Origin: Pseudomonadota bacterium
Lineage (GTDB): Bacteria > Verrucomicrobiota > Verrucomicrobiia > Limisphaerales > SXTU01
Direction of reading: 5' to 3'
DNA: 64,000 nucleotides
Assembly (NCBI GenBank): GCA_009922615.1
Contig: RFVF01000003.1
Location: 13,069 to 77,068, forward strand
The notes under the pieces were generated by a model. That model was not told the DNA's origin, made no database searches, and saw nothing but the letters and a program-made list of their open reading frames with translations. Of this stretch, positions 3,817-56,100 are shown piece after piece; the stretch's first letter is position 1; each line of letters begins with the position of its first letter. Both the position numbers and the translations under genes were made by a program.

Positions 3817-3872
3817 GCCTCGGCGCTAAGGCGGACGGTCTCGTGTCAGCCAGCTTGCCGCCCCTGCCCGTA

Positions 3873-4808: not shown

Positions 4809-4832
4809 TCGTGAAACGAAGGACTCGTTGCC

Positions 4833-6065: not shown

Positions 6066-6139
6066 GGTTAGTGTTCTGAGTTGAGGACCGAATTACAATG
6101 GTGGGAACTGAGGACTGATGTGGATGGAGGCTAGTTGAG

Positions 6140-14634: not shown

Positions 14635-14672
14635 CGCGGCCCGCGAGGATCGCAAACCGGTCGGAGCGCAGG

Positions 14673-35698: not shown

Positions 35699-35968
35699 CT
35701 TGGACGCTCTCAAACTTCAGATCGCACCAGAGGAGCAGCGCACCCGCGAAAACCCGGCGGCTCGCACGACCGACCTGCTCAAGCAGGTCTTTGGCGCGGT
35801 CAAGAAGCAGTGAGCCGTCGCCGGACCTGCGATGCTGGAAAAGCTGCGGCGTGTTTGGGGCTACAAGGAGAGTAGTCTCTGCCGCCGCCCACCTCGCCCG
35901 GCCAACATCATCCACCCCACCATCTGAGCCTGGTCGTCGGCCGCTCCGCGTGCTAGGCTGCGACCACT

Positions 35969-36901
35969 ATGGATCAACAGAGAGTCCGCGAACTCGTTGC
36001 GCTGCTTCCGCCGGGCGCCACGTATCCCGCCCACCCGCGCCGCAGTCCTTTTCAAGCCCGTCCGAGCGCGTCCGAACGCTTCGCGCTGGCTCTGCATGAC
36101 CCGGCCTTCGGCTGGCACTTCGTTCAGGAGCACCTCCGGCTGCGGCGCTGGCTGCCCGACACCATCCACGAATGGGAACTGCTGCAATGCTTCCTGACGC
36201 AGTGGTTGAAAGTGACCGATCCGCTGATGCTGGAGGTCGAGTCCTTCCGCAGCGAAGTGCGCCGCCAAGAGCGGGATCTTTTGGAGGCGCTGCTGCTGGC
36301 CAGAAGCGTCACCCTGGGAGATATCGCTGGCCACCTGCACACCACCGAGGAAGTTGTCGAGGCGTATGCCTGCTTATTCTGGAACGTGCGCGACCGCCTC
36401 GACGAGCGCGGCTACCTCAACACGCTGCTCTACCCGGCCGGTTGGCAGGCCGCCATGCGCGACGCGCAACCCAATGCCATCGGCGACCGTCTCCGTCTGC
36501 TCCGGGCCGGCGCGCAGAACGACGTGGAGGAAGTCCTGGCCTTGGCGGGTTACCAGCCAGGCAGCAAAGGTGGGGTGTTGACCGAGGACAGCGGCGAGGT
36601 GGAACGGCGGATGCAACAGGACGCCCAGCGGCGGATGCGGGCTGGCTGTCGCATGGAGGATCAGGTTGTCCGCGCAGTTCATACGGCCGCCGTCCGGCGG
36701 AAGGAAATTGCCCTGACCGAGGACGAGTTGGCCTTGCACAAGATCAATGCCGTGTCGCCCGCCCTGGAAGAGATCAGAAAATACAACGGGTTAAAGGGGC
36801 TGCCACCGCCGGATTACCGCGAGCTCATCGGGCGTGCCCGGGCGAACGCGGCCCCGGTGATCCGGGAGCTGCTTCCCCACGGCGACGGGAGCGGAAACTG
36901 A
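35969..36901 (+). CDS. hypothetical protein (element-borne, the only plus-strand gene)
   Basis: 310-aa ORF with good coding-like composition. No family recognised. Confidence 0.55.
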   Translation: MDQQRVRELVALLPPGATYPAHPRRSPFQARPSASERFALALHDPAFGWHFVQEHLRLRRWLPDTIHEWELLQCFLTQWLKVTDPLMLEVESFRSEVRRQERDLLEALLLARSVTLGDIAGHLHTTEEVVEAYACLFWNVRDRLDERGYLNTLLYPAGWQAAMRDAQPNAIGDRLRLLRAGAQNDVEEVLALAGYQPGSKGGVLTEDSGEVERRMQQDAQRRMRAGCRMEDQVVRAVHTAAVRRKEIALTEDELALHKINAVSPALEEIRKYNGLKGLPPPDYRELIGRARANAAPVIRELLPHGDGSGN

Positions 36902-36921
36902 GGATGACCGGCCGCGCCGGC

Positions 36922-37407
36922 TCACTCCCCACCGACCGGACATTCCGGCGCGCTCGCAGAAAGCACAGGCGGCAGGCCGGTCAACGGCAGGTTCACTGGC
37001 AACAAATAATCATTGGTGACTAGCGCGTCTTCCGGCTCGGTTACCAGCTCCAGCCTCAGGCCATTCGCCGACGGCACCAATCGAATCGCTTGCTCCGCTG
37101 CAGGCGTGGCCACCGGCGTGGCCGGCGGCTCCGACTGCGGCTGCACGAGCTGCGCGAGGAACTGGTTCAACCCGCGCACGGCATCAGCTTCTGCGTCTTG
37201 GATGAGCCGATGTAACTGGCCGGGCAGCGACGCCAGGGCCGCAGGGCTGGCCGCAAAGGTCTGGTCGCGGCCGGCTTCAATGACACGCGCGCTCTTGCGC
37301 GCGTCCGCGAGGATGACCAACACGGAGATCGAGATTGGCCGGGAGTCATCCTCCCTTGGAGGCGTTTGTTCAGCGCCGTTTGAGCTTACGGAATTGGGTG
37401 TGTTCAT
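36922..37407 (-). CDS. hypothetical protein
   Basis: 161-aa ORF, last gene of the minus-strand element operon. No family recognised. Confidence 0.5.
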   Translation of the reverse strand: MNTPNSVSSNGAEQTPPREDDSRPISISVLVILADARKSARVIEAGRDQTFAASPAALASLPGQLHRLIQDAEADAVRGLNQFLAQLVQPQSEPPATPVATPAAEQAIRLVPSANGLRLELVTEPEDALVTNDYLLPVNLPLTGLPPVLSASAPECPVGGE

Positions 37408-37435
37408 AGTGTTGTCAGACTTGTCAGTTGAGGGG

Positions 37436-38748
37436 TCAGACCGTCACGAGTCGCCGAAGCTGGTGTTCTGCGAGCGAAAACATTCCGCCGGGCAGTTCGA
37501 CCACGAAGCCCTCCGCGACCAATCTTTCGAGAACGGGCCACCATCGGTCCGTTGATTGACCCGGCAGAGCACGGTAGAGAGTTCTAAAATCCACCTCACC
37601 CAACTGCTTGAGCTTGGCCAGCAGGCGCTGCCGGTCCGCCAGCTGCCCGGCTTCCCTGAGTTCACGTTCGGCGGCCTCGTGGAGGCCCAACATCGCGCGA
37701 CCGAAGCTGCGGGCGAGTGCAATGCCCGCCTGCGCATGGGTCGCCAGAAGCGGCTCCCCCACGTCATCACCTGCCAGATGCAGCACGAGAGCGAGGCGGC
37801 GGGCCATCGTTGGCCAGCCATAGACGACCGCCTCGACCGCCCAGGCCAGAGGGGGTCCGGCGCGAGCAGTTCCGTGTGGAACGCGTTGAAGAGTCGGCTG
37901 GCCTCGGGGCTGACCTTGACCCCCAGCGGAGACGGGTCACCACGCCGCGCAAAGACGCGGCGCAGCAAGTCGGCCCAGCGTTCGGCGAGGGCGGTTGGCA
38001 GTGTTGGGTCGGCTGGCCAGCGCGTCGGACGAGGGCCGGCGTCCACGACGAGAAACCGCGTGCTGAGGTCGGCGGAGAGTCCGGTGAGAAATTCCCTGCC
38101 AGCCGGCGCATCTGCCTGGGCTTCGATGAGCACGTTGACGACTTCCCGGCGAGGCACCCCCTGCTTCGGCACCTTCGCCCGTCCGGCGAGGAGTTGCTGG
38201 AAGATGCGCCACCGTGAACCATTGTTATCGGCTTGGAGGTCTGGCAAAAACCGCCCAAATGAGCCGGCGTCGAGCGCCACGAGCACCGAGCCATCGAAGC
38301 TACGGGGCAGCGCGGCTTGCAGCTCATCGAAGGTGGGCGCGGTCAGCAGCACCACGGGTTGCTGGCGTGCCCGGACCTCGGCCGGGTTGGTGTGACTGCC
38401 CGACAGTAGAAGTGATGGCGGCTCCTCGCCGGCCAGAGCCCACAGCTGGTTCTGCACCGCGACCAGCGGACCTAGGAGTGCCTGCCGTGCCAGCGCGACG
38501 GTGGAGCCGGGTGGGGTGACGACCAGCGCGCTCAGCTCCGCCGCCAGCGGCGCGGTGGCACCTTCCACCAGTTGTGCCGCCGGCCCTGTGGCCGCTGACA
38601 GCACTTGAAGCACGAGCGCGTTGCCTACCGGGACAGGCAGTTCGAGTCGGTCGTCCAGACAGCCGACGAGAGCGCCTAGGAGACCCGGCAGCGGTGCTGG
38701 GACGGCAGGCAGGTTGGCGGTCGCCACTGAGAGCGACGGGTTAATCAT
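37436..38748 (-). pseudogene. DUF3987 (YfjI)-like replication-associated protein, frame broken at a G-run near 37838-37843
   Basis: N-terminus LPAVPAPLPGLLGALVGCL...LELPVPVGNALVLQVLSAATG...LSALVVTPPGSTVAL fits the DUF3987 pattern. After ...ELLAPDPLWPG the 434-aa ORF turns to junk, while the other frame continues AVEAVVYGWPTMARRLALVLHLAGDD... (ORF 37436..37807). Confidence 0.6.
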
Positions 38749-39121
38749 GCGCCCCCTCCGCGCCCTGCGTCGGGGCGTCCGGTTTCACCCCGCGGTTGTG
38801 CTGGTGCACCGCACGAAGGTGCAGAACCATGGCCGCTTCCAGGAGCCCAGGGGAGTGCTGGCTTTCGGCCACGCAGGCCAACAGGGTCCCCACGGCCTTC
38901 AGCGTGGCGAGGCCCGGCGGCTGAGGGTCCGTCGGTGGGCTCGGGGCTGCGGCGCCCTGAGCCGGGCGGCGCGTCGCATGCAGCCGGGCAAAGGCATCGA
39001 GCAGCGATGCGACCACGGTCGGCCACTCAGGATACGGGAGGGTTTCGTTGGGTGCTGGCCCCACGGCGGGGGGTGATGCGTGGTTGTCGTCGACGTGGGA
39101 GTTAGATTTCGGCGGTGTCAT
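38741..39121 (-). CDS. hypothetical protein
   Basis: 126-aa ORF with an 8-nt overlap onto the downstream DUF3987-like gene. Confidence 0.5.
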   Translation of the reverse strand: MTPPKSNSHVDDNHASPPAVGPAPNETLPYPEWPTVVASLLDAFARLHATRRPAQGAAAPSPPTDPQPPGLATLKAVGTLLACVAESQHSPGLLEAAMVLHLRAVHQHNRGVKPDAPTQGAEGAHD

Positions 39122-39176
39122 TTGTAGGGTTGAAGCCCCCTGCCGCCCAGATAAACCGGGCGGCAGGAAGCATGGT

Positions 39177-40538
39177 TCAGGTGTTTGCCTTCAGAGCCTG
39201 GAGCGCCGGGACTGAGAACGGGTCCGCCGGCAATGCTGGTGGTGTCCACGCGGCTCGTTCCACTCCGGGCCATTCACTGATTCGTGACCACCAGCCGCCG
39301 AGCCAGACCCGATGTTCAGCATAGGCGATGGCGCTCAGGCGATTAAGTTCGGCCCGCTGCTCAAGCGTCAGCTTTACGCCGGGATGATGGCGTTTCCATG
39401 CGGCCTTTCGGATCTCGTGGAAGCAATTCTCCGATTTGAGATCGGCGTCGGGCCACAGGTGCAGCTTGCTCTCCAAGCCGAGTTCCTGGGCCAGCCGCTG
39501 CACCATCCGCAGCGAGTCCATCGCGTAGGCGCGCCAGTCGTTGCGGGTGGCAAAGACGGCCGTGTTGACGATCTGGCCTTCGGCCGCGGCGTGTCTGGCA
39601 ATCCGTTCGATGTTGTCAGCGCGAACATTGACCGGCTCGGCGTAGATGGTGAACGGGTTGAGCGCCTTGACGGCCGTCAGTGTGGCGCGGACGTCGGCCT
39701 CGTCGCACTCGGCATAGGTGGGCGCAACCGCCACAAAGATGTTAAGATCCTGATCCCGGGCCGCCTGCAACGTGGCCAGCCGCTGCGTCGGTGCCGGCGC
39801 ATTCGGCTCGTAGATGCGAGCGAGCTGATTGTTCAACGTCGGCAAGCTCATCCCGAACATCAGCCGGTTGCCGAACGACTTGAACAAGTCGAAGTCCTGC
39901 CGGGCGAGCGGACTGCGCGTCAGAATCCGCACGTTCAACGTCGAGTGATCCCGGATCAGCTCCAGGATTCGCCGCACCATGTGGGCGCGCTCCGCGTTCA
40001 GCCGCTTTTGCAGCGCCTTGTCCGGCGCGGTGATAGTCTGATAGGGATCCGTCGTGGTGCAGAGCATCACGGCCCGGTTGCCGTCCAAGCTCAATTCACT
40101 CAAGGGACGATTCTCCGCTGCCTGGATGTCCTTCATGACCCGTCCTTCGTCGAACGGGCGAAGGAGCACGTAGTCGCCCCACTGGGCACCGGGGTCCTCA
40201 ACGCCGTAGCGTTTCTTCAGCACGGGTTTGAGGAACTTCGTGGATACCGCCGGCACGTAGCAGAATTCGCAGCTGTGGCCGCAGCCAAGGGAGATGTTGC
40301 ACTTCCAGTCAGAAAGGCTCTTGAACTTGAAATGGTTGAGCTCAATCCGAACTGGCTTGTGCCAGAAGTCCACCATGGCGGCTGGAGCTGCTGGTGTAGC
40401 GGCGAGAGGCTTCATGGTGCCCAACGCGATCGACTTTTCGTGCGCCTGTCTCAACGCCGCCGTAACGAGGTTGTTGGCGGCGTGGATGTTGTTGGCCGAT
40501 TCGGCCGCGGGGTTTACAAGGGTCACTTGCATAGTCAT
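39177..40538 (-). CDS. radical SAM protein, SplB/COG1533 (DNA-repair-photolyase-like) type with N- and C-terminal extensions
   Basis: NISLGCGHSCEFCYVP contains CxxxCxxC in the GC-x-H-x-C-x-x-CY context typical of spore-photoproduct-lyase-like enzymes. Confidence 0.7.
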   Translation of the reverse strand: MTMQVTLVNPAAESANNIHAANNLVTAALRQAHEKSIALGTMKPLAATPAAPAAMVDFWHKPVRIELNHFKFKSLSDWKCNISLGCGHSCEFCYVPAVSTKFLKPVLKKRYGVEDPGAQWGDYVLLRPFDEGRVMKDIQAAENRPLSELSLDGNRAVMLCTTTDPYQTITAPDKALQKRLNAERAHMVRRILELIRDHSTLNVRILTRSPLARQDFDLFKSFGNRLMFGMSLPTLNNQLARIYEPNAPAPTQRLATLQAARDQDLNIFVAVAPTYAECDEADVRATLTAVKALNPFTIYAEPVNVRADNIERIARHAAAEGQIVNTAVFATRNDWRAYAMDSLRMVQRLAQELGLESKLHLWPDADLKSENCFHEIRKAAWKRHHPGVKLTLEQRAELNRLSAIAYAEHRVWLGGWWSRISEWPGVERAAWTPPALPADPFSVPALQALKANT

Positions 40539-40556
40539 GTTTGGGTAGAGAAGTGA

Positions 40557-41222
40557 TCAGGCAGCTGCCGACAGGGATTGTTCGCCCGTGCTGTCAGGCA
40601 CCGCGCGTGTGTGGAGAAACAAAGAGTCGGATCCGACGGCGGCTTCGACGGCGCTGAAGAGCGCCTCGAACTCTTCCGAGTCCCAGTAGTGCTCGATCAA
40701 GTCGAGGGCCAGCGAGCCAAGCCGGGTGGTGAGCTCGTGCAATTCGCAGAGGCTGACGGTGCCAGGTTGCTGATTGTGCCGGTCCATCAACCGGTCATGC
40801 TCGGCCTCAAGGAACGCCGCCTCGTCAGCCTGCTCCTCAACATATTCACGAACGTCGGGCTCGGCGGCGCAAGGCAGGCTGAGATCCACGGCGCGAAAGT
40901 GCGCGATGAGCGAGCCGCGCAAGATTCTCCAAAGTGCGCGAACGTGCTTGGGGTCAACGTGGCCGGAATTGAATCCCGCGCGGACAGCGAGGCAGACGCC
41001 CAGCTCTTTGTGTGCACTGTGGAGCAAGCTGATGGCGTGTGCGTAGGCATCCTTCAGCGTGGCGTCGGCCGACAGAGGCGGAGCGCCCTCAGGCTGCCGG
41101 GCGCTATGATACAAGTCGAGGTCAGATGCCCGACTCCAACCGGGAGGGTTGGCGATGTTGATGAAGCCCGGCGGCAAGGCCGCGAGCGCTGCGTTTTGAT
41201 CTGTCATACTGCTGGTTTGCAT
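40557..41222 (-). CDS. hypothetical protein
   Basis: ORF 40557..41417. The upstream part overlaps the polymerase gene, so ATG 41222 (MQTSSMTDQN) is the likely start. It is preceded by an A-rich leader. Confidence 0.5.
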   Translation of the reverse strand: MQTSSMTDQNAALAALPPGFINIANPPGWSRASDLDLYHSARQPEGAPPLSADATLKDAYAHAISLLHSAHKELGVCLAVRAGFNSGHVDPKHVRALWRILRGSLIAHFRAVDLSLPCAAEPDVREYVEEQADEAAFLEAEHDRLMDRHNQQPGTVSLCELHELTTRLGSLALDLIEHYWDSEEFEALFSAVEAAVGSDSLFLHTRAVPDSTGEQSLSAAA

Positions 41223-41367
41223 GTTTTTTTTCTGTTGTTTTACCGAACTTCCCTCCGCAGCCAGGCCGACAGGCCCGGTTGAACTGCGGAGAAATTGGTG
41301 ACCGGAAGGGTAGGCAGGCTGGAATCGGCGCATGCCAAAAGGAGCGCGTTGAGAGTGGTGATGGGAA

Positions 41368-43758
41368 TCATAGGGTGGGGAACTTTCCAGGTTTGTGGAG
41401 GAGCAGCAGTTCAGCACGGAAGCCGGGGAACCGATCGGTGATGACCTTGATGAACTGCAACACCGCAGGCGTCGTGGCGACGGAGTGTTCGATCAGTTTC
41501 GAAGCAGGGCGCTGGGCGTTCTCCACATCCTCGCGGCGACACGGATAGCCGGAGGCAGTGAGCCACTCCGCCAGTTCCGGGTAGTTCATGACGCGGGAAT
41601 CCAGCCCCCAACGGTTGCGCACAAAGGCGCGGAGGAACATGCGCAGCGCCACCTTGGAGGCACCCCTCGGCGCGGTGGTCCTCACAGCGCGGCCGGGCGG
41701 TGTGGCGCAGAAGGCGCGGAAGTCCGCGAGGTCCCCGACGGTCTTCAACACGCGCTGGCGGCGGAACACCTCCCAGTGAGCGCGGCACTCTAGGAACGCC
41801 TCGACGTTGGGCCAAGGCCGGGACTCGAAGGCAAGGTGAGGAATCTCGCGGATGTCCCGCATGCATTCGCCGACAGGTTCGCGCTTGAAGTCGTAGTCGA
41901 GGCTGGCGCGGCGCTCCACGGGCACGGCGACCAGGTCGCCGCCATGACGGTGCAGGTCCTGGAGCGAACGCAACTGCGAGTAGGTGACCTTGCTGTCAGC
42001 GTCGCGGCGGACGAACTGGTCGATCAGCCAATCATTATGCAGCGCCTTGTCCTTAATGGGCGGCTTGATGCCGGCCTTGGCTAAGACAATTGGCTCGCCG
42101 GCAAGGGGAACGAGAGTTGCCTGGCCCCGGGTGCGAATGCCCAAGGGTTGAGCGATCCGGTGCTTGATGTCGTAAATATTCGGGTCGCCAGTGAGGCGCT
42201 GGCGGGCGAGGGAGTAGGCTCGGCAGAGCTCACCCTGTGTGACGGCACCGATGTCGGCCTCCGTCGCGGTGCTGAGGAAACCGTCGGTCGTGGCGCTGCA
42301 CACCACGACGTGTGGTGGCAGCGCGTTGAGCATTTCACCCATAACACCCCGGATGAAGGAGGTGATCCACGCCGCGAAGAAAGGATTTGAGATGCGCCCG
42401 GGACGAAGCCACTGCAGCTGTCCAGTCCGGGAATCGAAGGCGCGTTTGGGGCGCGTGCCCTGCGCAAGGCGGCCGTAGGTGGAATTGGCCAGTTCCTTCC
42501 AAAGCGCGTTCTTGACGTCGCCCTTGGGGAACTGACTCCGGCGGCGGGTGCATTCCCGCACGAACAGCTCAAAGGGCCTGATGCTGTCGTCCACCGGCAG
42601 CACCACGCCGTGGAGGATTTCAAGGTGCGCCCCCAGCTTGCGGGCCAAGCAGATCTCCGGAGAGCAACAAAAGGAAGTGCCGGACAAAGGGAACAAAGGA
42701 CCGTGCTCGGTCGCAACCGGAAGGCAGGGGTAGCGCGTGCCGGGTGGAAAGCGGAAGCGGACGTGGGCAAAGCCCAGGGTGAGTGGGCCGTAGTCGTCGA
42801 GGTTCGTGGAGCTGCGCAGCCGCTCCCAGTCGGGCATGCCGATGAGAGACATGGCCACCGAGTAGGCACCGGCCAAGTCCACGTCGAGCCAGGTGCCCAT
42901 AGGACCTGCACCGAAGAGGAACTGCACGTTCAGTCCGCCGTGGAAACACTCGGTGGCCAAGGTCTCGAACAGGTGGCGTGACGCCTCCGGCCTGACTGAC
43001 TTGCGCGGCAGGAGCCGACCTTTCGCAGGATTCCACGCCCGCTCAACTAACTCCTCGATGCCGAGCACCTGCTGGCGAGAGACCCCCTTGCTCTCCCAGA
43101 GCCCGAGGAGGAAGGCCTCACCGAGACCAGACAACGTCACCGGCACTTCGGCCCTGCCGGTCAACCCCTCATTGAGCTGAAGGAGCTGCAGGGCGTGAGC
43201 GACGCAGATCGTCGGGTCTTGGCGAGCGTAACGATCGAATAGTTCGGGATCACGCTCCAGCGGCTCAGCCATGCGCTCAATCTGGCCGTCGGACAACTCA
43301 ACCCTGGGCTCACCAAGCAGGGCACCGAGTGAGTCCAAAGACTTGGAGCCGCCCGGCGTCAGCAGCAGCGTGTCCCGGAGCGTGACGGCGATGACATGGC
43401 GATGCTTGCTGGAGTCGTGGACCGGCACCTTGAGCGGATGCTGCAGGGTCACGTAGGTGTTCCTGATCGAGCTGAACTGGAGCTGGAGCTTGGGGAAGTC
43501 CGCCAGCATGGCGAGGTCCGACAAGGTCCAGTGCCCGACCAGAGTCAGGGCCTTGGGCCACCGCCGCAGATGTCCTGCCTTCCGCCCTGCCTCGATGATG
43601 TGACGAAGGAGAGAGGCTAGGGTGAGGCGCTTGCCGTCCTGACAGTAGATGACACCGGACCAGGAGGGCCCGCCTAGCAATTGGCCGTGGAACGAATAGC
43701 AGAGTGCCCGGTTAAGCGAGGCGTCCTGTTTGTCCCACTCGCAGTCGAAGCCCACCAC
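41368..43758 (-). CDS. family-B DNA polymerase of the primer-independent (piPolB) type
   Basis: ExoI VGFDCEW at residues 2-8. ExoIII YARQD. Motif A DVDLAGAYS. Motif B KELANSTYG (KxxxNSxYG). Motif C SATTDGF (TTD instead of DTD). Also KH..(8)..RTRG. 796 aa. Confidence 0.8.
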   Translation of the reverse strand: MVGFDCEWDKQDASLNRALCYSFHGQLLGGPSWSGVIYCQDGKRLTLASLLRHIIEAGRKAGHLRRWPKALTLVGHWTLSDLAMLADFPKLQLQFSSIRNTYVTLQHPLKVPVHDSSKHRHVIAVTLRDTLLLTPGGSKSLDSLGALLGEPRVELSDGQIERMAEPLERDPELFDRYARQDPTICVAHALQLLQLNEGLTGRAEVPVTLSGLGEAFLLGLWESKGVSRQQVLGIEELVERAWNPAKGRLLPRKSVRPEASRHLFETLATECFHGGLNVQFLFGAGPMGTWLDVDLAGAYSVAMSLIGMPDWERLRSSTNLDDYGPLTLGFAHVRFRFPPGTRYPCLPVATEHGPLFPLSGTSFCCSPEICLARKLGAHLEILHGVVLPVDDSIRPFELFVRECTRRRSQFPKGDVKNALWKELANSTYGRLAQGTRPKRAFDSRTGQLQWLRPGRISNPFFAAWITSFIRGVMGEMLNALPPHVVVCSATTDGFLSTATEADIGAVTQGELCRAYSLARQRLTGDPNIYDIKHRIAQPLGIRTRGQATLVPLAGEPIVLAKAGIKPPIKDKALHNDWLIDQFVRRDADSKVTYSQLRSLQDLHRHGGDLVAVPVERRASLDYDFKREPVGECMRDIREIPHLAFESRPWPNVEAFLECRAHWEVFRRQRVLKTVGDLADFRAFCATPPGRAVRTTAPRGASKVALRMFLRAFVRNRWGLDSRVMNYPELAEWLTASGYPCRREDVENAQRPASKLIEHSVATTPAVLQFIKVITDRFPGFRAELLLLHKPGKFPTL

Positions 43759-43808
43759 TATGATAGGTGCCCGGATAGATGTCCGGCGATGTCGCGGTGG
43801 AATTCAAG

Positions 43809-44042
43809 TCAGGCATTGTGTCCTCCGTCGTCATGAACTTCCGGCTCCTCGCCGCGTTTGAGGCGCTCGTAGGCGTCAATCGCGGACTGGTAGTCGTAGA
43901 GCGATTCGCGGCCTGGCTTCCCTTGGCGAACGGTCTTGATCCAGCCGGCCTTGATCAGCTGGCCAGCGAGCGTCTTCGAACCGAATAGCCGGTTCAGGTC
44001 GCGGCGGTTCACCATGAACGGTGTGGTAGTCGTGGGGCTCAT
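43809..44042 (-). CDS. small DNA-binding protein, excisionase/AlpA-like (putative)
   Basis: 77 aa, 4-nt overlap with the upstream xis-like gene. FMVNRRDLNRLFGSKTLAGQLIKAGWIKTV resembles a winged-helix excisionase fold. Confidence 0.45.
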   Translation of the reverse strand: MSPTTTTPFMVNRRDLNRLFGSKTLAGQLIKAGWIKTVRQGKPGRESLYDYQSAIDAYERLKRGEEPEVHDDGGHNA

Positions 44043-44332
44043 TCGCCGCCCTCCTGCTGACCTGCCTCAGCATCGGACCGAGGCGTTAGTGACCCGTCGA
44101 TGAGCGGGTTCGCCACCTGCGCGAGTTCACCTCGCTCGGCACGCTCGATGAAGCGCTGAAGCTCATGGTCGGTTATGTAAAGTCTGCCGGCAATCCGGAT
44201 GGGTTTGATCCAACCGCGCTGAACCCAGCGCCAGCCGGTGACACGGGATCGCCCCAACTCGTCCAAGAAATCCGAAAAAGATTTCACGCGCGGCTGTTGC
44301 GCCGGCCTTTGTTCGCTTTCATTTCGTTGCAC
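44039..44332 (-). CDS. excisionase-family HTH (HTH_17/MerR-like) protein
   Basis: FLDELGRSRVTGWRWVQRGWIKPIRIAGRLYITDHELQRFI matches the excisionase-type HTH pattern. Confidence 0.6.
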   Translation of the reverse strand: MQRNESEQRPAQQPRVKSFSDFLDELGRSRVTGWRWVQRGWIKPIRIAGRLYITDHELQRFIERAERGELAQVANPLIDGSLTPRSDAEAGQQEGGE

Positions 44333-44344
44333 GAGTGGGCCGAC

Positions 44345-44700
44345 GACGCCCCATTTGCGGTTCGTTACTCGGCTAATTTTACGTTTTGCGGCCGAAGTCC
44401 CTAATCGGTCGTTCCGCTTCTCGTGAACCCGGCAAACCCCTGCTCCACCTCATCGAGTCACAGGCAACAAAGGGAGATGGCATCCGCGATTTTGATGACG
44501 GCCCGCAGATTGGCTCCACTCTGCCGACGATGCCGCCGAAGAGTTTGGCGGCGTCGAGTTTCAGCAACGGGATGTTTAAGGCGTCAGCAGTGGCCTTGGC
44601 GGTGAGCGACTTGCCGGTGCTGAGGGTGCCGGCGATCCGCAGACTTTGCGGGAGCGGGCAGCCCCGGTCCTATTTGAGGAATCGGGGGGGGCAGTTTCGC
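44345..44700 (-). pseudogene. degraded AAA+ ATPase remnant
   Basis: Minus-strand translation across frames gives ...LRIAGTLSTGKSLTAKATADALNIPLLKLDAAKLFGGIVG / SGANLRAVIKIADAISLCCL*LDEVEQGFAGFTRSGTTD*... This is a Walker A, LFGGIVGESE-type box and Walker B with one frameshift and two in-frame stops, truncated by the xis-like gene. A G8 tract lies at 44684-44691. Confidence 0.65.
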
Positions 44701-44883
44701 AATCCGCGCCCTTGAAACTGACGCTCTCGATGTGGATGTCACCCATGAGTGACACGGTGATTTCGACGGTGGGTTTAATAGGGAGGCGAGGACGATTCGG
44801 CTCAACTGTGCGGAAGAGGCTCAGGGACCGGTTAGAATGAGGGTCAACTGGCAGCGCCTCACATCCGGTGGCGGGATCGCCGA

Positions 44884-45864
44884 CTATGCCAGACACCCGG
44901 GAACACGCAAAACCTCCCGCTCAATCATTTGTTCTGCCGGGTCTGCGGGCGTGCCTTCAGGCCGGGGCAGGTCCAAGTGCAAACGACCGGACCTCGGCAC
45001 GGTGATTTGCTGCGGAGATAAAGGCTCCAACACCCAGGGTGGAGCGAACGAGAAGCACCAGGCGTCGCGCATTCTGATCATCATGTCCAAGGCTGAATTC
45101 TTGAGCCTCATCCAATTGGAAGAATTTGGCCTGAGGGTTCCGGTGGCTTTCTGAACCTTGATCAAATCGCCGGCAAAATAGACCGAGAGTCTCAGGACAG
45201 ACAATTCGTTCATCCGGCTGTAGATAACCCCTGGATTCTCCCGCTTGCCAACGCCGCGACGATTGTGCGTCACGGCGGTCGGATCCCAGGGCGGATTACC
45301 CCGGAGTTCTGCTTTGACGTGCTGTCGGACCTTTTCCGCATGCAAGGTTTTTAGCTGCTCACGCCGCCGCGTCACAATTTGGGCCAGCCGCCGCAAAATC
45401 TGTTTGTCCGTGCGATGAAAGTTGATCCGGACGAACAGATCAGCGGCGTCACCCAGGTCCGCCGGATCATGATCGCAGTCACCCACGGCGGTGCGGTAAG
45501 TGTAAATGTCCAGATCAATCTCCTGCACGGTTTTCTGATCAAACAGTGACGTGTGCTCATTAATTCCCACCTTGCGCAGTCGCGCTCTGCGTTCGGTTTC
45601 GGGTATCGCAAGCCAAGGGTGCGCCGGAAATTCGGGGAAATGCTTGACGAGGAAGGTGGCGAACCGGGGCGGGTTTCGCCGCTCCACAGGCAACTCACCC
45701 TCTTGGCGAGGTGTGGGCTTCTTGTCCGATCGTAACTCCAGCACCCACTTCACCATGGGGCGATAAGAGCGGGCAAACTCGTAGTTGAGCCAGCCGTTCA
45801 GTTCCCAGTCGGCCAAGACCTTTTGCGCCCGGGTCGGCCATTTCCATTCGTTGTCATTTAGCAT
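44884..45864 (-). CDS. hypothetical protein (element-borne, lower GC)
   Basis: ORF 44884..45912 (TTG). The first in-frame ATG is at 45864 (MLNDNEWKW). No family recognised. Confidence 0.55.
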   Translation of the reverse strand: MLNDNEWKWPTRAQKVLADWELNGWLNYEFARSYRPMVKWVLELRSDKKPTPRQEGELPVERRNPPRFATFLVKHFPEFPAHPWLAIPETERRARLRKVGINEHTSLFDQKTVQEIDLDIYTYRTAVGDCDHDPADLGDAADLFVRINFHRTDKQILRRLAQIVTRRREQLKTLHAEKVRQHVKAELRGNPPWDPTAVTHNRRGVGKRENPGVIYSRMNELSVLRLSVYFAGDLIKVQKATGTLRPNSSNWMRLKNSALDMMIRMRDAWCFSFAPPWVLEPLSPQQITVPRSGRLHLDLPRPEGTPADPAEQMIEREVLRVPGCLA

Positions 45865-45898
45865 GATGGGGATCCCTCTGCGTGGGGTGCTTGGCTTT

Positions 45899-47137
45899 TC
45901 ATTTGAACTCAATCCGTTGCGCCTGCTTTTTGGTGTGTTCGTCGTTCAAATGACCATAAACTTTGCCGATTAACACCCCGCCATCCCTGTGGCCGACCCA
46001 TTTGGCGATGGTCATGAAGTCGACGCCCGACATGACGCACATGGAAATGAAAAAATGGCGGCAGTCGTGAAAGCCAAACGCTGGCAGACCAGCCGCGGCA
46101 CGGGCCAGTCGGAGTGACTCGCGGAAGGATTTGGCGCGCTCGTCCCGCGCGCCGCGTTGGGGCGAAGGGAAAAGCCACTCGGAGTCCGGGGCGCGACGTG
46201 ACTCCATATCACGGAGATGAGCCTTGAGCCGGGGATTGAAATCCACCACGCGGGTCTGGCCATTCTTGGTCAGCTTGTCCGTGCCAATCTGAAGCTGCTC
46301 CGTGGTCCAGTGCACGTCGCTCCATTTGAGCCGCAGGGTTTCACTCATGCGGGAACCGCACCGCGCCAGCAGGCGCACGAAGTCGGCGAATTGCTGCGCG
46401 TTTTTTAGGGGCACACCCGGTTCGCCGGACTTGGCCAGCTTCCCACCGGCAAAGACGGGACGAAAGCCGGCCGCGCAGATCGCCTCCACTTGGGCGTCGG
46501 TGAAGAGTGCGCGTTGGTGGGGTTTGCATTTGAGCGGCTTGTGGTCGCCGATCGTGACCGCTTTGAGCAGCCCTTCCTTCACGGCGCGGTGGAGCACATT
46601 GCGCAGGCAGATCACTTCCAGGTTCACGGTGCGCGGAGCCGCCCCGGCCGCCTGTCGCTGGGCGATGAACTGGTCAACCATCTTCGAAGTGAGGCGATGC
46701 AGACGCACGCCGCCCAGCTGTTTCAGCCAATGGCTCAGGTGGGCGCGTTCCGAATTCAACGTGCTCGGTCGTTTCTCGTGCATGGCCTGCTCGTAGTGGG
46801 CGAAATACTGCGGGACATACTCGCTCAATTTGGGCGTCTGGCCCAGGGTGGGCAGGCTCCGGTCCTCCCGCTGGATGAGCAACCGGCGCAGCGCGGCTTG
46901 GGCTTCGGCGTCCGTGCCGGCTTTCTCCAGCGGGACGCGGAGCACTTTGGCGATGCCCGTGCCGGGATTTTGAACGGCCACGCGGGCATAGTAGCGCCCG
47001 TTGCGCACCCAGAGTCCGCGCACGGGACGCTTGCGGGCGTCGTGCACCTTTTGATACGTTCCGCGACGAGATGGGCGCTTGCCTTCGATGTTGTCGGCCG
47101 GGGCGCCGGGATTTCCCGGCGTTGCATCACGTTGCAT
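45899..47137 (-). CDS. tyrosine-type site-specific integrase
   Basis: ORF 45899..47173, ATG at 47137. ARCGSRMSETLRLKW (Arg I), FGFHDCRHFF (H-x-x-R) and HRDGGVLIGKVYGHL (catalytic Tyr region). Confidence 0.9.
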   Translation of the reverse strand: MQRDATPGNPGAPADNIEGKRPSRRGTYQKVHDARKRPVRGLWVRNGRYYARVAVQNPGTGIAKVLRVPLEKAGTDAEAQAALRRLLIQREDRSLPTLGQTPKLSEYVPQYFAHYEQAMHEKRPSTLNSERAHLSHWLKQLGGVRLHRLTSKMVDQFIAQRQAAGAAPRTVNLEVICLRNVLHRAVKEGLLKAVTIGDHKPLKCKPHQRALFTDAQVEAICAAGFRPVFAGGKLAKSGEPGVPLKNAQQFADFVRLLARCGSRMSETLRLKWSDVHWTTEQLQIGTDKLTKNGQTRVVDFNPRLKAHLRDMESRRAPDSEWLFPSPQRGARDERAKSFRESLRLARAAAGLPAFGFHDCRHFFISMCVMSGVDFMTIAKWVGHRDGGVLIGKVYGHLNDEHTKKQAQRIEFK

Positions 47138-47217
47138 GGCGTTACAGTGGCACAAAAAGTGGCACAACGTCAAACGATGTGGCTGAATTCATGTGCAAGT
47201 TGTTCATAATCAACAGT

Positions 47218-47301
47218 GGGCACGTGGCGGAATGGCAGACGCGCTGGACTTAGGATCCAGTGGAGCAATCCGTGCAGGTTCAAGTCCTGTCGTGCCCACC
47301 A
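47218..47301 (+). tRNA. tRNA-Leu (anticodon UAG), class II with a long variable arm and encoded CCA
   Basis: Manual fold: acceptor GGGCACG/CGTGCCC, anticodon stem CTGGA/TCCAG with loop CTTAGGA, variable arm tGGAgcaaTCCgt, T-arm GCAGG-TTCAAGT-CCTGT, then A-CCA. Confidence 0.9.
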
Positions 47302-53635: not shown

Positions 53636-55000
53636 TCATTGTTCCCAGTCCGTCCAGCGGACCATATCCCCCAGAAGGAGCCGTCCATCATGCCGCCACG
53701 TCAACGGCGGGTTTTGCATCTGACCCAGCGGGCACAGGCGGGTAGCGCCCCAGCGGGCAAACTGCTTCGCGAGCCCTTCCAACTCATGCTCCTGCGCGGC
53801 GAGGCCGACGGTCGAGGTGTGATCCCGCACCGGGTCGGCCCCGCGCAGGGCCTCGCCCACGTCCAACACGGGCTTCACGTAGATGAAGCGGTTCAGGCAC
53901 GAAAGCGCGAACCGCGCATCAGCCTCATAAACCACCGTCCACGCCGTTGAATCCGCGCTGCACCAATGACGGGTGGTTTCGGGGGAATGCGCGGCACGCA
54001 CTTCGTAGATGGCCCGGCGCGCGGCGATGTGCGCGGCATCCTCGGTGGAAATCTTCCCGCGCGGCTCGGCGGCCTCGCGCCGCTCCAGTTCGGCGGCGAG
54101 CTGCTCGGCAAATTGCAGCGCGAAACCAACATTGTTGTCCTCGACGTAGAAAACGTGCGGTGAAAGACAGCCCAGTTGGTCCCACGCGACCACGTCGGCG
54201 GCGGCGGCGGCAACAATCTTCTTCGCCCGCCAGCCGGAGATGGCTTCGCGCGTTATGTAGCCGAAACTGACTTGGTGTCCGTAGCCGGCGAAGCGCACGC
54301 GGGGCGGCAAAGCGCGGCGGACCTTCTCCACGGACACGTCCTCGCCTGTGGCCGTGACCGCGTCGCACTGCGCGAAGAGTGCTTCCTCCAGCGCGGGAGA
54401 GCCGCCCCGCCAGGCGGCAATTTCGATGCACGCCGCCAGCTTGGGCTCGCTGCCATAAAGGGAGTGGAGGAATACGCGCGGGAGGAATGCACCGCCGCGC
54501 GAGCACTTGATGAACTGCGCCGAGCGCGTAAGCAGACCGAGGAGGATGGCCATGAACGCGGCGTTCGGCACACAGCCCGCCGTGATGTGGCCGACCAGTT
54601 CCGGTCCCGTGGCGAGCGCGAGCCGGCGGGTGCGGCTGTCGCTGTTGCTGGCGCAGAACGCATCGAACCGGTGGGCCGGGCCGAGTTCTTGCGCCAGCAA
54701 GGCCTCGATATTTTCGCCGGTGAGCTGCTTGAAGAAATGGTCGAGCCCCGTGGCGAGCGTGTGCGCGGAAAAGCCCGTGTGCAACGGCCCTTCCTTGAGC
54801 GCGAACCGGCGGAAGGGATAGTCGTCACACAGCCAGTCCTCACCCGTGCGGACGAGCGTGCGCAGAATGCTGGGCGTGTCGCGCACGGCGAGGTAGTGCG
54901 CGCGGTTGCGCTTCAACGTGAGGCACGCATCGGTGACCATCGCGGGCGTGAGGTCAGCCTCCGGTGGCAGGTCGGCAAGGAAATAGTTGGGCAGGGTCAT
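53636..55000 (-). CDS. LuxC-like acyl-CoA (acyl-protein) reductase
   Basis: ORF 53636..55222, ATG 55000 (MTLPNYFLADLP). GHITAGCVPNAAFMAILLGLL, IKCSRG and WDQLGCLSPHVFYVE fit the LuxC family (aldehyde-dehydrogenase-like, catalytic Cys). Confidence 0.7.
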   Translation of the reverse strand: MTLPNYFLADLPPEADLTPAMVTDACLTLKRNRAHYLAVRDTPSILRTLVRTGEDWLCDDYPFRRFALKEGPLHTGFSAHTLATGLDHFFKQLTGENIEALLAQELGPAHRFDAFCASNSDSRTRRLALATGPELVGHITAGCVPNAAFMAILLGLLTRSAQFIKCSRGGAFLPRVFLHSLYGSEPKLAACIEIAAWRGGSPALEEALFAQCDAVTATGEDVSVEKVRRALPPRVRFAGYGHQVSFGYITREAISGWRAKKIVAAAAADVVAWDQLGCLSPHVFYVEDNNVGFALQFAEQLAAELERREAAEPRGKISTEDAAHIAARRAIYEVRAAHSPETTRHWCSADSTAWTVVYEADARFALSCLNRFIYVKPVLDVGEALRGADPVRDHTSTVGLAAQEHELEGLAKQFARWGATRLCPLGQMQNPPLTWRHDGRLLLGDMVRWTDWEQ

Positions 55001-55011
55001 GCGAGACGGAG

Positions 55012-56100
55012 TCAGGCCGCGAGCAATGAACAGCCACGCGCCTCGGCCGGCGCGGCGCGCCCGAGCAGCTCGAAGCCATCGCCGCGCCGGACGGCGAGGT
55101 CTTCTGTTTGCAGGGCGAGCACAGAGCCGACATTCGCGAGGTCGAAGATTCTGAGCAAGCCGGTTTCGCCGTCCGGGACTTCGCGTCCGGTTTCCGGCGA
55201 GACGACGAGCGCGCGGCACCAAGGGGGGAAATGGAAGACAGAGTGATTAGCGACGAGCGAGTAGGCCTGCGAGCTGAGTTCGCTCATGCCGTATTCGCAG
55301 ACGATGGATTCAGGAGGCACGCCCAGGCGGTCGGTGAGGAGCGCGTGCAATTCGGCCTTGGGCAACTCACGCGAACGGCCCTTGTAGCCGCCGGTTTCCA
55401 TCAGCCGCGACCCGGGCGGGAGCGTGAAGCACAAGCTGCGTCGAGCCAGTTCGTCCAGCATATGCACAAACATGAATGCGGTGCCGAGCAGCACTACCGA
55501 CTGGCCGGCAGACTCTGCTTCACGCAAAGCGTCGAGCGCAGCGGCGGAGTCGAGCTGCCAAGCCTTGTCCGCGCCGACGGTGGCGAGGAAGCGCGAACCC
55601 GATCCGCCAAACGTTGCGCTTACGCAGGCGAACATGTGGACCAGCGAAGAGTGCGGGGCGAGTTGCGGCGGCGGCGCAAGGCAAACCATCGCCGGGCGAA
55701 ATGCCGACCATGCAGTAGGTAGCACGTGTCGCGCGAACCACGGTCGCAGCGCGGCTTCATACACCGCCAGCGAGTCGGCGCTGTGGAAGTACCGGCTGGG
55801 CCGGTGCTCTGTCGTCCCGCTGGAGTGGAAAACGGCGACGCATTCGGATGGGGCAAGGCTCGTGAGTTCGAATTCCTTGAACGCGGCGGCAGGGACGGCG
55901 GGAATTTGCCGCCAGTCCCCAAGCGATTCCGGCGACACGCCCCGCGCCTCGCACAGCCGCCGATACGGCGCGACATGGGCAAATTGCAGCGCGAACAACT
56001 CGCGGACAAGCGTGGCAAACGCCGTATCGCCGCCGCCGCCGCGTTCAATGAACGCGCGGATGCGATGCGTGCAGGCGGTGAAAGATGACGTCGTCGTCAT
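55012..56100 (-). CDS. LuxE-like acyl-protein synthetase (adenylate-forming)
   Basis: LQFAHVAPYRRLCEARG ... AAFKEFEL ... VFHSSGTTEHRPSRYFH ... METGGYKGRS matches the LuxE (PF04443) pattern. Confidence 0.7.
   Translation of the reverse strand: MTTTSSFTACTHRIRAFIERGGGGDTAFATLVRELFALQFAHVAPYRRLCEARGVSPESLGDWRQIPAVPAAAFKEFELTSLAPSECVAVFHSSGTTEHRPSRYFHSADSLAVYEAALRPWFARHVLPTAWSAFRPAMVCLAPPPQLAPHSSLVHMFACVSATFGGSGSRFLATVGADKAWQLDSAAALDALREAESAGQSVVLLGTAFMFVHMLDELARRSLCFTLPPGSRLMETGGYKGRSRELPKAELHALLTDRLGVPPESIVCEYGMSELSSQAYSLVANHSVFHFPPWCRALVVSPETGREVPDGETGLLRIFDLANVGSVLALQTEDLAVRRGDGFELLGRAAPAEARGCSLLAA

Follow-up and report, generated by a model that had tools for sequence, protein, structure and literature searches.

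Positions 35815-47217 of the window, the 64,000-nucleotide stretch of DNA that we analysed, are best read as an integrative element of the pipolin family, in a Verrucomicrobiota genome that is Limisphaerales/Pedosphaera-like, and we hold this explanation, taken whole and with the mechanism proposed below, to be highly probable. The island belongs to an already known kind of element, the pipolin, whose DNA polymerase can, in E. coli, begin synthesis with no primer; here it lies in a freshwater Verrucomicrobia genome, and this copy looks partly decayed. It is flanked by an EPS sugar-transferase (Bac_transf) gene ending at 35698 on one side and by tRNA-Leu(UAG) on the other; both landmarks, proposed in the original prediction, were confirmed, the tRNA with its anticodon and strand. 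The features are as follows (L numbers are our handles for the sequences compared).

35815..47217, whole element, 11,403 bp here and 11,579 bp in assemblies without a 176-bp deletion
47218..47301, plus strand, tRNA-Leu(UAG), host gene and presumed integration target (ARAGORN; Rfam RF00005, 60 bits)
47138..47217, integrase-tRNA spacer, with tandem AGTGGCACAA repeats at 47146-47167 and an A/T-rich CATAAT box at -13..-8 from the tRNA start
45899..47137, minus strand, tyrosine integrase (Int412; PF00589 E 1.3e-18; phrog_1 E 1e-53)
44884..45864, minus strand, orf326, conserved integrase partner, in the same position in L053, L057, L060 and L150 at 23-27% identity
44039..44332, minus strand, HTH97, excisionase-like HTH_17 protein of 97 aa (PF12728 E 1.7e-4, under the curated cut-off; phrog_66 E 3e-7)
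43809..44042, minus strand, orf77, small protein with only a weak phrog_57 match
41368..43834, minus strand, piPolB gene, disrupted in this assembly (796-aa ORF 41368-43758; native ATG 43834; deletion junction 43782-43788)
40557..41207, minus strand, orf216, downstream of the replicase slot, in the same slot in L050, L130, L131 and L150 at 32-53% identity
39177..40538, minus strand, radical SAM enzyme of 453 aa with a CGHSCEFC cluster motif (PF04055 E 3e-5; NF038135 E 1e-12; phrog_13321 E 8e-24)
38741..39121, minus strand, orf126, with homologues in L130 (51% identity) and L014 (84%)
37444..38748, minus strand, orf434, DUF3987-like, 434 aa, frameshifted near 37846 beside a G5 run
36922..37407, minus strand, orf161, with homologues 37-77% identical in L130, L131 and L014
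35969..36901, plus strand, orf310, terminal opposite-strand gene, with homologues 58-62% identical at the corresponding end of L130 and L131, likewise inverted
35815..35968, conserved non-coding leader at the far end, aligning with L130 and L131

Logan contig L002 corresponds exactly to 35785-47247, that is, to the element plus 30 nt (k-1) per side. On the left, homology to the related elements L130 and L131 begins at about 35815; on the right, conserved element sequence reaches the 5' end of the tRNA, and strain L008, whose flanks are 97% identical, diverges immediately upstream of 47218. The left boundary is placed on one assembly-graph contig end and this stop in homology, without a sequenced junction. 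Inward from the tRNA, the genes run integrase, orf326, excisionase-like HTH, orf77 and piPolB, followed by a semi-variable cargo arm of orf216, the radical-SAM enzyme, orf126, the DUF3987-like protein, orf161 and the inverted orf310. Eleven co-oriented minus-strand genes had been predicted; the block has ten conserved genes on the minus strand and orf310, conserved in related elements, on the plus strand. Minus-strand ORFs at 35861-36739, antisense to it, were rejected as genes for this reason. Profile searches gave no family match for orf310, in which a possible helix-turn-helix was seen by eye. The leader and its flanks align with L130 and L131 at a mean column identity of 62%, with no convincing covariation and no Rfam match.

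By its sequence, the polymerase is a true piPolB. Such enzymes are defined by two signature substitutions, in the motifs SxTTDG and KH-X8-KTRG; the window polymerase has SATTDG and KH-X8-RTRG, which fit them, along with FDCEWD, and replaces the KTRG lysine (K623 in E. coli) with arginine. Both checks suggested at the outset, a piPolB HMM and BLASTP, came out in favour: a proxy HMM built only from gammaproteobacterial (enterobacterial and Vibrio) homologues scores the protein at E 2e-156, and it matches the E. coli pipolin polymerase P0068 at 33% identity over 98% of its length (E 5e-114). A gene 99.6% identical to that of P0068 occurs in 296 of 5426 complete E. coli genomes, and the context of the P0068 gene, int-HTH-212aa-PolB near tRNA-Leu/Cys/Gly-pgsA-uvrC, is the canonical pipolin setting. 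The AlphaFold model of the polymerase (pLDDT 90.2) agrees with this identity in showing a phi29-like PolB fold, with phi29 DNA polymerase as its best structural match (E about 1e-13, TM-score 0.64-0.67). We found 107 piPolB homologues. Homologues of the 796-aa ORF carry PF03175, and the window polymerase itself has no Pfam match at E <= 0.01. The predicted architecture of piPolB, tyrosine recombinase and tRNA-Leu is supported by every test that we ran, with one correction to the polymerase gene: the 796-aa ORF is the remnant of an 880-aa gene, of which it keeps residues 85-880, the entire folded part.

The integrase was correctly recognized as a tyrosine recombinase; gene callers start it at ATG 47137, 80 nt from the tRNA and not 44 nt as first proposed, and a longer ORF reaches 47173. 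More than 1847 homologues were found, mostly in Verrucomicrobia. At least nine independent loci place this family 80-220 nt from the 5' end of tRNA-Leu(UAG), Leu(CAA), Leu(CAG), Met(CAU) or Arg(CCU), always divergent from that end in the loci examined. Blocks of the spacer are conserved among elements at tRNA-Leu(UAG), Met(CAU), Arg(CCU) and Leu(CAA); its features may represent Int/Xis binding sites and a tRNA promoter brought by the element, and a simple sigma-70 scan gave no full promoter. Profile searches found no family match for orf326, whose only three database matches are all from Verrucomicrobia and whose AlphaFold model is unusable (pLDDT 41). Two excisionase-type HTH genes had been proposed, and one stands: HTH97, kept in position in relatives, matches a PHROG annotated 'excisionase and transcriptional regulator', whereas orf77 has no comparable match. 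In intact copies orf77 overlaps the start of the polymerase gene, and homologues (53-66% identity) lie directly upstream of PolB in 15 of 81 loci scanned (80 metagenome loci plus L049) and in L130, L131 and L149.

In the cargo arm, orf216 has no family match. The radical SAM enzyme, which we treat as cargo, shows a distant HMM likeness to the Rv2578c/PA0069 radical SAM families, at scores far below the cut-offs; L131 holds an 84% identical copy, and L130 and L150 have a DUF5131 protein in this slot. For orf434, the frame of 37448-37846 encodes the true C-terminal domain: its intact counterparts, 431 aa long in L131 and 437 aa in L130, match PF13148 (DUF3987) and align across two frames of the window.

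The element abuts the 5' end, not the 3' end, of tRNA-Leu(UAG). In the relatives L151 and L153, a 5.4-kb element is bounded by a perfect 40-nt repeat of tRNA nucleotides 1-40. A direct repeat of the tRNA region is absent throughout the 64-kb window, and L053 and L150 lack an att repeat too, so the 40-nt repeat geometry is demonstrated in only one relative (L151/L153), and we infer it for the window. This tRNA relation, the missing repeat and the gene disruptions had not been part of the original prediction.

We propose a mechanism in which the tyrosine integrase would recombine the circular element with the 5' half of the tRNA gene. The element would supply a new 5' half with its upstream sequence, and the half that it displaces would persist at the far end as a direct repeat; recombination in the 5' half would thus leave the element ending on the 5' side of the tRNA. 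Excision would be assisted by the HTH protein. The primer-independent family-B polymerase would then initiate synthesis on the circle and copy it, a step modelled on the biochemistry of E. coli piPolB, on the conserved motifs and on the Prim-Pol or rolling-circle Rep that related backbones have in its place. We know of no pipolin shown in vivo to be replicated by its own piPolB.

Comparison with relatives argues that the element is, or was, mobile: the backbone lies beside other tRNAs in related metagenome-assembled genomes (MAGs), and sister species lack the block here, against the refuting case named at the outset, in which all relatives would carry it in synteny. The block is absent from the corresponding locus in 32 related MAG loci. 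In three related MAGs the backbone sits at other tRNA-Leu genes, and their rhomboid gene adjoins neither a tRNA nor an element. Strain L008 has, at the tRNA-Leu(UAG) site of the window, an element end that has diverged. The tRNA of the sister species L017 is 100% identical and has no adjoining element. No empty site was recovered at this locus, where every contig with the flanking sugar-transferase gene also has orf310. PolB of L130 and L131 is 60-64% identical to that of the window, and both keep the order orf77-PolB-orf216-(rSAM)-orf126-orf434-orf161-orf310(inverted); L149 keeps tRNA-Int-orf326-HTH-orf77-PolB.

The window copy is probably trapped: it lacks a far-end repeat, its DUF3987-like gene is frameshifted and, in this assembly, its polymerase gene is 5'-deleted, the native ATG now meeting a stop after 40 codons. 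A possible but doubtful alternative is that the element is still active, the integrase needing only a short core unrecognisable in sequence, and the deletion and frameshift being assembly or sequencing artefacts. The 176-bp deletion, which shortens the polymerase gene, is found in this assembly only; three other assemblies of the same population have the 176 bp and an intact 880-aa gene. Inside the element, the NCBI assembly made from the same sample lacks sequence at three different places (134-169 bp each), a pattern that fits assembler errors in a strain-variable region. Deletions of this sort may be assembly artefacts. Continued activity would also agree with the whole folded enzyme kept in the 796-aa ORF, CAGTG at both predicted junctions, and recombination between element variants in L014. 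However, the similarity of the junctions is at chance level (p 0.17-0.6), the orf434 frameshift is seen in all assemblies of the population, the only relative with clear ends uses the 40-nt repeat, and neither an empty-site contig nor one for a circular form was found.

Somewhat less probable, and on balance unlikely, is that the evolutionary unit is a Verrucomicrobial integrative-plasmid backbone (5'-half tRNA integrase, orf326 and HTH), with piPolB as exchangeable, non-replicative cargo serving, for example, damage tolerance or defence. The integrase family far outnumbers the piPolB homologues. In L150, whose integrase is 73% identical, the piPolB slot of the same backbone is filled by a 723-aa Prim-Pol protein, L151 encodes a rolling-circle Rep, and L064 has a piPolB homologue with a different integrase at a canonical 3' tRNA site with a 57-nt repeat; moreover, E. 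coli piPolB is known from the literature to perform translesion synthesis. Yet the genes found in its place encode enzymes of replication initiation, in favour of a replicative role, the orf77-piPolB linkage is tight across clades, and a PADLOC search found no known defence genes in the element.

A prophage, phage satellite or casposon-like element with a protein-primed or RNA-primed PolB is very unlikely. The best structural match of the polymerase is, as given above, phi29 DNA polymerase, and phi29-like phages, casposons and polintons share with the element the family-B fold and the idea of an own replicase; there is also a weak PHROG DNA-polymerase match and a weak small-terminase match for orf77. 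However, the sequence of the enzyme matches neither phi29 nor any other solved polymerase, and it carries the piPolB-specific SxTTDG and xTRG, not YxDTDS and KxY. No profile library searched returned a capsid, portal, large terminase, terminal protein or Cas1, nor does the element have a retroviral-type integrase; it combines a tyrosine integrase with a tRNA target in place of terminal inverted repeats, which are absent, and we found no relatives in IMG/VR. Least likely of all is an ordinary, vertically inherited host gene block beside the tRNA by chance: although it is present in all sampled strains of the species, has no repeat and is not set apart from its flanks by composition, the related MAGs that lack it here have homologous blocks at other tRNAs, and it holds an integrase, an excisionase-like gene and a mobile-element hallmark polymerase.

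The pipolin-family element of the window shares with E. coli-type pipolins (3-373-03_S1_C2 type; Redrejo-Rodriguez et al. 2017, PMC5695915; PMC11551731) a full-length homologous piPolB with SxTTDG and KH-X8-xTRG, tRNA-Leu adjacency, and a conserved core with a variable cargo arm. Both also encode a tyrosine recombinase and an excisionase-like HTH_17 protein, and in both a small gene immediately precedes that of the polymerase. The polymerases, however, are only 33% identical, and the predicted likeness to the E. coli tRNA-Leu site holds for the tRNA family and is otherwise superficial, since isoacceptor (Leu(UAG) here, Leu(UAA) there), gene side and accessory genes differ. Among described tRNA-integrated pipolins, 99.8% sit at the tRNA 3' end, and many described pipolins carry defence genes, in contrast to this element, which also lacks flanking direct repeats. 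Against twelve proteins of an Enterobacter example, blastp gave, besides the polymerase, only a weak integrase match (23% identity, E 6e-6) and no counterpart of its DUF2787 protein. An alphaproteobacterial pipolin subgroup (Rhizobiales, Rhodobacterales) was described in 2024 (Mateo-Caceres and Redrejo-Rodriguez; PMC11551731). Homologues from Methylobacterium/Methylorubrum, compared by their polymerases, share the RTRG variant, 37% identity and membership of the Gram-negative-host piPolB set, but form a separate clade in a neighbour-joining tree. Elements whose tRNA target is used in the reverse of the usual orientation are attributed to Zhao and Williams 2002, as cited in PMC6563490; they share with ours the 5' side of an intact tRNA and, in L151 and L153, a repeat of the 5' part of the gene, and differ in that the far-end repeat is missing in the window. 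Such elements are not known to carry piPolB.

The original prediction foresaw a host outside the Proteobacteria and Firmicutes and possibly a new lineage, and the names of database matches identify it as Verrucomicrobiota; a search of the literature, including the main texts of the pipolin papers, found no link between this phylum and pipolins. The element extends pipolins to a phylum, Verrucomicrobiota, unmentioned for them in the searchable literature, and does so on the 5' side of its tRNA, an orientation that is rare among tRNA-targeting elements.

Redrejo-Rodriguez et al. (2017; PMC5695915) define piPolBs by two motifs: SxTTDG, which replaces YxDTDS, and KH-X8-KTRG, which replaces KxY. 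In the first of these, the PolC motif, Thr takes the position of the first catalytic Asp of YxDTDS (PMC5695915). The window polymerase, numbered here on its intact 880-aa form P0001, reads SATTDG at residues 572-577, in agreement with SxTTDG, and TTDG ends the aligned PolC motif in 104 of 106 homologues, the exceptions being one SAITDG and one gap. The second motif, KHRIAQPLGIRTRG at residues 616-629, has the KH and the eight-residue spacing exactly and agrees with KH-X8-KTRG, the first K of KTRG being R, as it is in 59 of the 106 homologues, the Methylobacterium ones among them; KTRG is the sequence of the E. coli-type proteins. The ExoI motif FDCEWD is also found. P0068, a polymerase of Enterobacter hormaechei (E. 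coli pipolin type), has 33% identity to the window polymerase over 98% of its length (phmmer E 5e-114). Of 5426 complete E. coli genomes, 296 have a gene 99.6% identical to that of P0068, and the P0068 gene stands in the surroundings of a canonical pipolin (integrase, HTH_17, a 212-aa gene, polymerase, DUF2787 and a P4-type integrase) adjoining tRNA-Leu(taa)/Cys/Gly, pgsA and uvrC. Judged by its motifs and homologues, the 796-aa protein is thus best described as a piPolB, as the original prediction held. Primer-independent de novo DNA synthesis has been demonstrated for the E. coli piPolB only (PMC5695915).

The 796-aa protein itself matches nothing in Pfam or NCBIfam, and PDB sequence searches with the single protein and with a 106-sequence profile returned no polymerase and no solved PolB; many of its 107 homologues carry a precomputed PF03175 assignment. 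The proposed piPolB HMM check was run with a proxy HMM, built from only nine Enterobacter, Plesiomonas and Vibrio homologues and distinct from the curated ExplorePipolin HMM, which gave the window polymerase 528 bits at Z = 1e6 and an E-value of 2e-156, far past the cut-off that ExplorePipolin applies with its own piPolB HMM (E <= 1e-50). An AlphaFold model of the intact form (pLDDT 90.2, pTM 0.88), with disorder confined to residues 1-78, has phi29 DNA polymerase as its top structural match (about 700 aligned columns, TM-score 0.64-0.67, E ~1e-13), followed by archaeal PolBs, and so confirms a PolB fold at the level of prediction. In a midpoint-rooted neighbour-joining tree without bootstrap support, neither the window clade of P0001-P0006 nor its environmental sister clade (about 45% identity) falls within the Methylobacterium, Zoogloea, Enterobacter and Vibrio groups; the Methylobacterium homologues share the RTRG variant with the window protein yet form a group of their own.

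The polymerase lies among eleven genes between a sugar-transferase gene and a tRNA gene.

Features of the element and its borders, in window positions
47218-47301, + strand, tRNA-Leu(tag), the one tRNA placed by ARAGORN and Rfam
45899-47137, - strand, tyrosine integrase Int412 (PF00589 E 1.3e-18; phrog_1 E 1e-53)
44884-45864, - strand, orf326, no family match
44039-44332, - strand, HTH97 (HTH_17 E 1.7e-4; phrog_66 excisionase E 3e-7)
43809-44042, - strand, orf77, weak PHROG match only
41368-43758, - strand, polymerase ORF of 796 aa, with piPolB motifs and homologues
40557-41207, - strand, orf216, no family match
39177-40538, - strand, radical-SAM protein of 453 aa (CGHSCEFC motif; PF04055 E 3e-5; Rv2578c/PA0069 families E 1e-12)
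38741-39121, - strand, orf126, no family match
37444-38748, - strand, orf434, DUF3987-like
36922-37407, - strand, orf161, no family match
35969-36901, + strand, orf310, no family match
ends 35698, Bac_transf sugar-transferase gene, far side of the element

The tRNA-Leu(UAG) and the pairing of a tyrosine integrase with the piPolB in one element are as the original prediction described them. Its count of eleven genes also stands, but not their common orientation, orf310 being on the plus strand; the minus-strand ORFs at 35861-36739 that were probably counted instead are antisense to orf310, which is the conserved one. Of the two excisionase-type HTH genes that it proposed, HTH97 is upheld by its phrog_66 match, and orf77 has only a weak match to PHROGs. 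For orf326 we found only three homologues, and its AlphaFold model has a pLDDT of 41.

Related elements show that the block is one coherent element. In L130 and L131, whose polymerases are 60-64% identical to that of the window, the order is orf77, PolB, orf216, (radical-SAM gene), orf126, orf434, orf161 and an inverted orf310, and in L149 (polymerase identity 78%) it is tRNA, integrase, orf326, HTH, orf77 and PolB. Logan contig L002, from the same population, is 11,639 bp long and corresponds exactly to window 35785-47247, that is, to the block plus 30 nt (k-1) on each side, a pattern that branching of the assembly graph at 35814/35815 and 47217/47218 would produce. The homology to L130 and L131 of the non-coding leader upstream of orf310 ends at about 35815, and at the other end conserved element sequence reaches within a few bases of the tRNA start. 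Because of these three observations we place the element at 35815-47217, the left limit at 35815 being deduced from them and not from a sequenced empty-site junction. The leader itself (35815-35968) is conserved with L130 and L131 at the DNA level, and has no Rfam match and no convincing covariation; promoter, origin and att arm are all possible roles for it. An Rfam scan for non-coding RNA found the tRNA only, GC content and skew give no contrast between element and flanks, and PADLOC found no defence match on the element.

Two other classes of PolB-bearing element can be set aside. A casposon is dismissed by the lack of Cas1 in Pfam, NCBIfam and PADLOC searches and of inverted repeats pairing both ends, a repeat scan of three sub-regions that included both element ends having returned short local inverted repeats only. 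A phage or linear plasmid with a protein-primed PolB (phi29, PRD1 or Bam35 type) would be expected to carry YxDTDS and KxY, which are replaced here by the piPolB motifs, and PHROGs and Pfam identify no structural genes. The element is a pipolin by its hallmark gene and general architecture. Pipolins are recognized by integration at a tRNA or tmRNA with overlapping att-like direct repeats; tRNA adjacency is seen here and the repeats are not, so that ExplorePipolin would label the window copy 'incomplete'. The authors who described pipolins accept plasmid pipolins and pipolins without repeats, and the missing repeats thus lower the claim to a complete integrated pipolin, but not the claim to a pipolin. 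The original prediction is accordingly borne out for piPolB and recombinase beside a tRNA, short of the complete form. The element differs from the Enterobacter/E. coli-type pipolin in that blastp finds no accessory gene common to both, bar a weak integrase match. We found no link between pipolins and Verrucomicrobia in the searchable literature, including the main text of the pipolin papers. Three variant features are noteworthy: integration on the 5' side of a tRNA, the RTRG motif, and a novel backbone whose replicases appear to be exchangeable.

The integrase gene starts 80-220 nt from the 5' end of a tRNA gene, and its start faces that end, at the window locus and at no fewer than eight further independent loci. 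The tRNAs concerned are Leu-tag (window and the strain locus L008), Leu-caa (L055, L148, L149), Leu-cag (L150, L151-154), Met-cat (L053) and Arg-cct (L057, L060). A 5.4-kb element with a rolling-circle Rep and two integrases, this type included, is flanked in L151 and L153 by a perfect 40-nt direct repeat (9881-9920 and 15313-15352) that equals nucleotides 1-40 of tRNA-Leu(cag), from the 5' end to the anticodon loop. Therefore, this integrase family appears to recombine with the 5' half of the tRNA gene. The window element likewise lies 5' of an intact tRNA, as do reversed-orientation tRNA elements, for which a 5'-half repeat is seen here in L151 and L153; the window, L053 and L150 showed no such repeat. 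On the 3' side of the same tRNA-Leu(cag), L151 and L153 have another integrase-bearing element, so that both sides of one tRNA gene are occupied. Integration at the 5' half of tRNAs is 'considerably less frequent' than integration on the 3' side (PMC6563490), and of the pipolins integrated at tRNAs 99.8% are at the 3' end (PMC11551731). This canonical 3' arrangement is seen in piPolB elements of the sister clade that have other integrases: in L064, a 57-nt direct repeat (6480-6536 and 20210-20266) overlapping the 3' part of tRNA-Arg(acg) bounds a 13.8-kb piPolB element. That element has a different integrase, and a BspA-type LRR protein and a Laminin_G_3 protein are part of its cargo.

Elements at different tRNAs have a conserved spacer between integrase and tRNA, in which there are AGTGGCACAA repeats in tandem and, at -13..-8, an A/T-rich box; the far end of the element has no copies of the GTGGCACAA repeat. 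We infer that the spacer holds candidate recombinase binding sites. It might also supply a promoter to the tRNA; since a simple sigma-70 scan of the spacer found no promoter, such an element-borne promoter is speculative.

The replicase itself appears to be exchangeable. L150, which adjoins tRNA-Leu(cag), has an integrase 73% identical to that of the window, counterparts of orf326, HTH97 and orf216 and, as in L130, a DUF5131 protein; the 723-aa protein that it encodes at the position of piPolB (13026-15197) contains a Prim-Pol domain (PF09250; its 32 bits exceed the curated cut-off). The small L151 element carries the rolling-circle Rep. The presence of Prim-Pol and of Rep in place of piPolB is support, though not proof, for piPolB as the enzyme that initiates replication of the element. 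A tentative reading, to which we give slightly less than even weight, is that Verrucomicrobia harbour a family of small integrative elements with one backbone (a 5'-half tRNA integrase that brings its own tRNA-upstream sequence, orf326 and an excisionase-like HTH protein), on which piPolB, Prim-Pol and rolling-circle Rep are interchangeable replication modules.

The original prediction would have been contradicted by the same block at the same locus in all relatives. Instead, at all 32 loci of related Limisphaerales/Pedosphaera-type MAGs that have a rhomboid homologue, both the element and the EPS genes are missing to the left; the closest of them also share the SlyX-TsaB-TsaE-AIRS genes after the rhomboid gene. 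In three of the same MAGs the backbone occupies other sites, tRNA-Leu(caa) in L148 and L149 and tRNA-Leu(cag) in L150. L017, the closest sister species, has a 100% identical tRNA-Leu(tag) with asd before it and no integrase, but the sought-after clean empty site did not emerge among the 32 rhomboid loci, because gene order to the left of the rhomboid gene varies. Contigs retrieved by exact matches to the flanking proteins (rhomboid, sugar-transferase and a 37-aa protein) were all occupied or truncated. In L017 the left flank is asd and not the EPS cluster, and 4.9 kb (4957-9927) with two unknown genes, a histidine kinase and a response regulator lie between tRNA-Leu(tag) and the rhomboid gene. 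The tRNA-Leu(tag) neighbourhood is a rearrangement hot spot.

Strains close to the window also differ within the element. L008, whose flanks are 97% identical, is only about 60-65% identical directly upstream of the tRNA and keeps the conserved blocks of the family, which points to a different family member at the same tRNA site. In L014 (98.9% identical in the flank), positions 3689-4985, equivalent to window 37343-38728, have the orf434 segment swapped for a 40%-identical variant, and the neighbouring genes are only 77-87% identical to those of the window, which points to recombination between element variants. Presence is therefore patchy, with absence at the rhomboid locus of relatives and related copies at other tRNAs, and the element is, or was, mobile. 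The sole contig spanning the whole element, L002, represents the integrated form. A scan of viral contigs for the spacer motif gave 14 matches, none near a tRNA, a PolB or a close integrase relative (two have an integrase match nearby, only 25% identical), and an integrase scan of viral contigs gave no match.

Elsewhere in the window, genes for a LuxC-like acyl-CoA reductase and a LuxE-like acyl-protein synthetase lie at about 53636-55974, downstream of rhomboid-TsaB-TsaE (Pfam labels from the identical contig L004). Several Limisphaerales-like MAG records (L017, L019-L021, L025, L031, L034, L038 and L045) stand under unrelated names (for example 'uncultured Klebsiella sp.', 'Akkermansia muciniphila', 'Chitinophaga pinensis' and 'Proteobacteria bacterium'). 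Most of their rhomboid proteins are 78-95% identical, that of L045 is 56% identical, and the closest records share the synteny as well; the names look like mislabelled public taxonomy.

The window copy appears partly degraded. The polymerase gene lacks 176 bp of its 5' region (junction 43782-43788) that are present in the same-population contigs L001, L002 and L003; the native ATG at 43834 now leads into a 40-codon ORF, and the 796-aa ORF, equal to residues 85-880 and thus to the whole folded part, would need GTG 43758 as its start codon. In orf434 there is a frameshift near 37846 (37843-37855), beside a G5 run: the intact DUF3987-type homologues in L130 and L131 align with two of the gene's frames, and its true C-terminal domain is the overlapping 123-aa ORF at 37436-37807. 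This frameshift is common to all assemblies of the population. The NCBI assembly GCA_009921305.1, from the same sample, has three other in-element deletions of 134-169 bp (36732/36867, 39199/39353 and 42453/42623). In the aligned stretch, all 134-176-bp deletions between same-population assemblies lie within the element and none in 9.5 kb of left host flank; they may be real heterogeneity or assembler artefacts in a strain-variable region.

att repeats in the window were rejected, a repeat search, blastn-short and local alignment all remaining at background. The repeat search and blastn-short of the tRNA region against the whole 64 kb found no second copy of that region, and local alignment, in which tRNA nucleotides 1-42 were compared with each 60-nt window of either strand, gave nothing above background. 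The predicted left junction is no more like the tRNA 5' half than are random windows, and the CAGTG common to both predicted junctions has p ~0.17-0.6. We lean slightly towards a window copy that can no longer excise.

To our knowledge, pipolins are one of only three 'self-synthesizing' mobile element groups, and the pipolin polymerase is in use for primer-free DNA amplification. Our data extend the pipolin family to Verrucomicrobiota and to an environmental piPolB clade with the RTRG variant, and indicate that piPolB can ride on a backbone without detectable accessory genes of the Enterobacter/E. coli-type example, bar a weakly similar integrase. The window locus and its relatives are also a clear example of rare 5'-side tRNA integration. 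Current views are not overturned, and the extension is incremental but useful. As far as we know, the role of piPolB as a replicative primase-polymerase in vivo has been deduced mainly from in vitro work, and the natural swap of piPolB for Prim-Pol bears on this cellular role. If the reading of interchangeable modules is true, these elements would include a pipolin lineage with mirror-image tRNA integration, and the swap would be natural comparative evidence for piPolB as the in vivo replicative primase-polymerase of the element.
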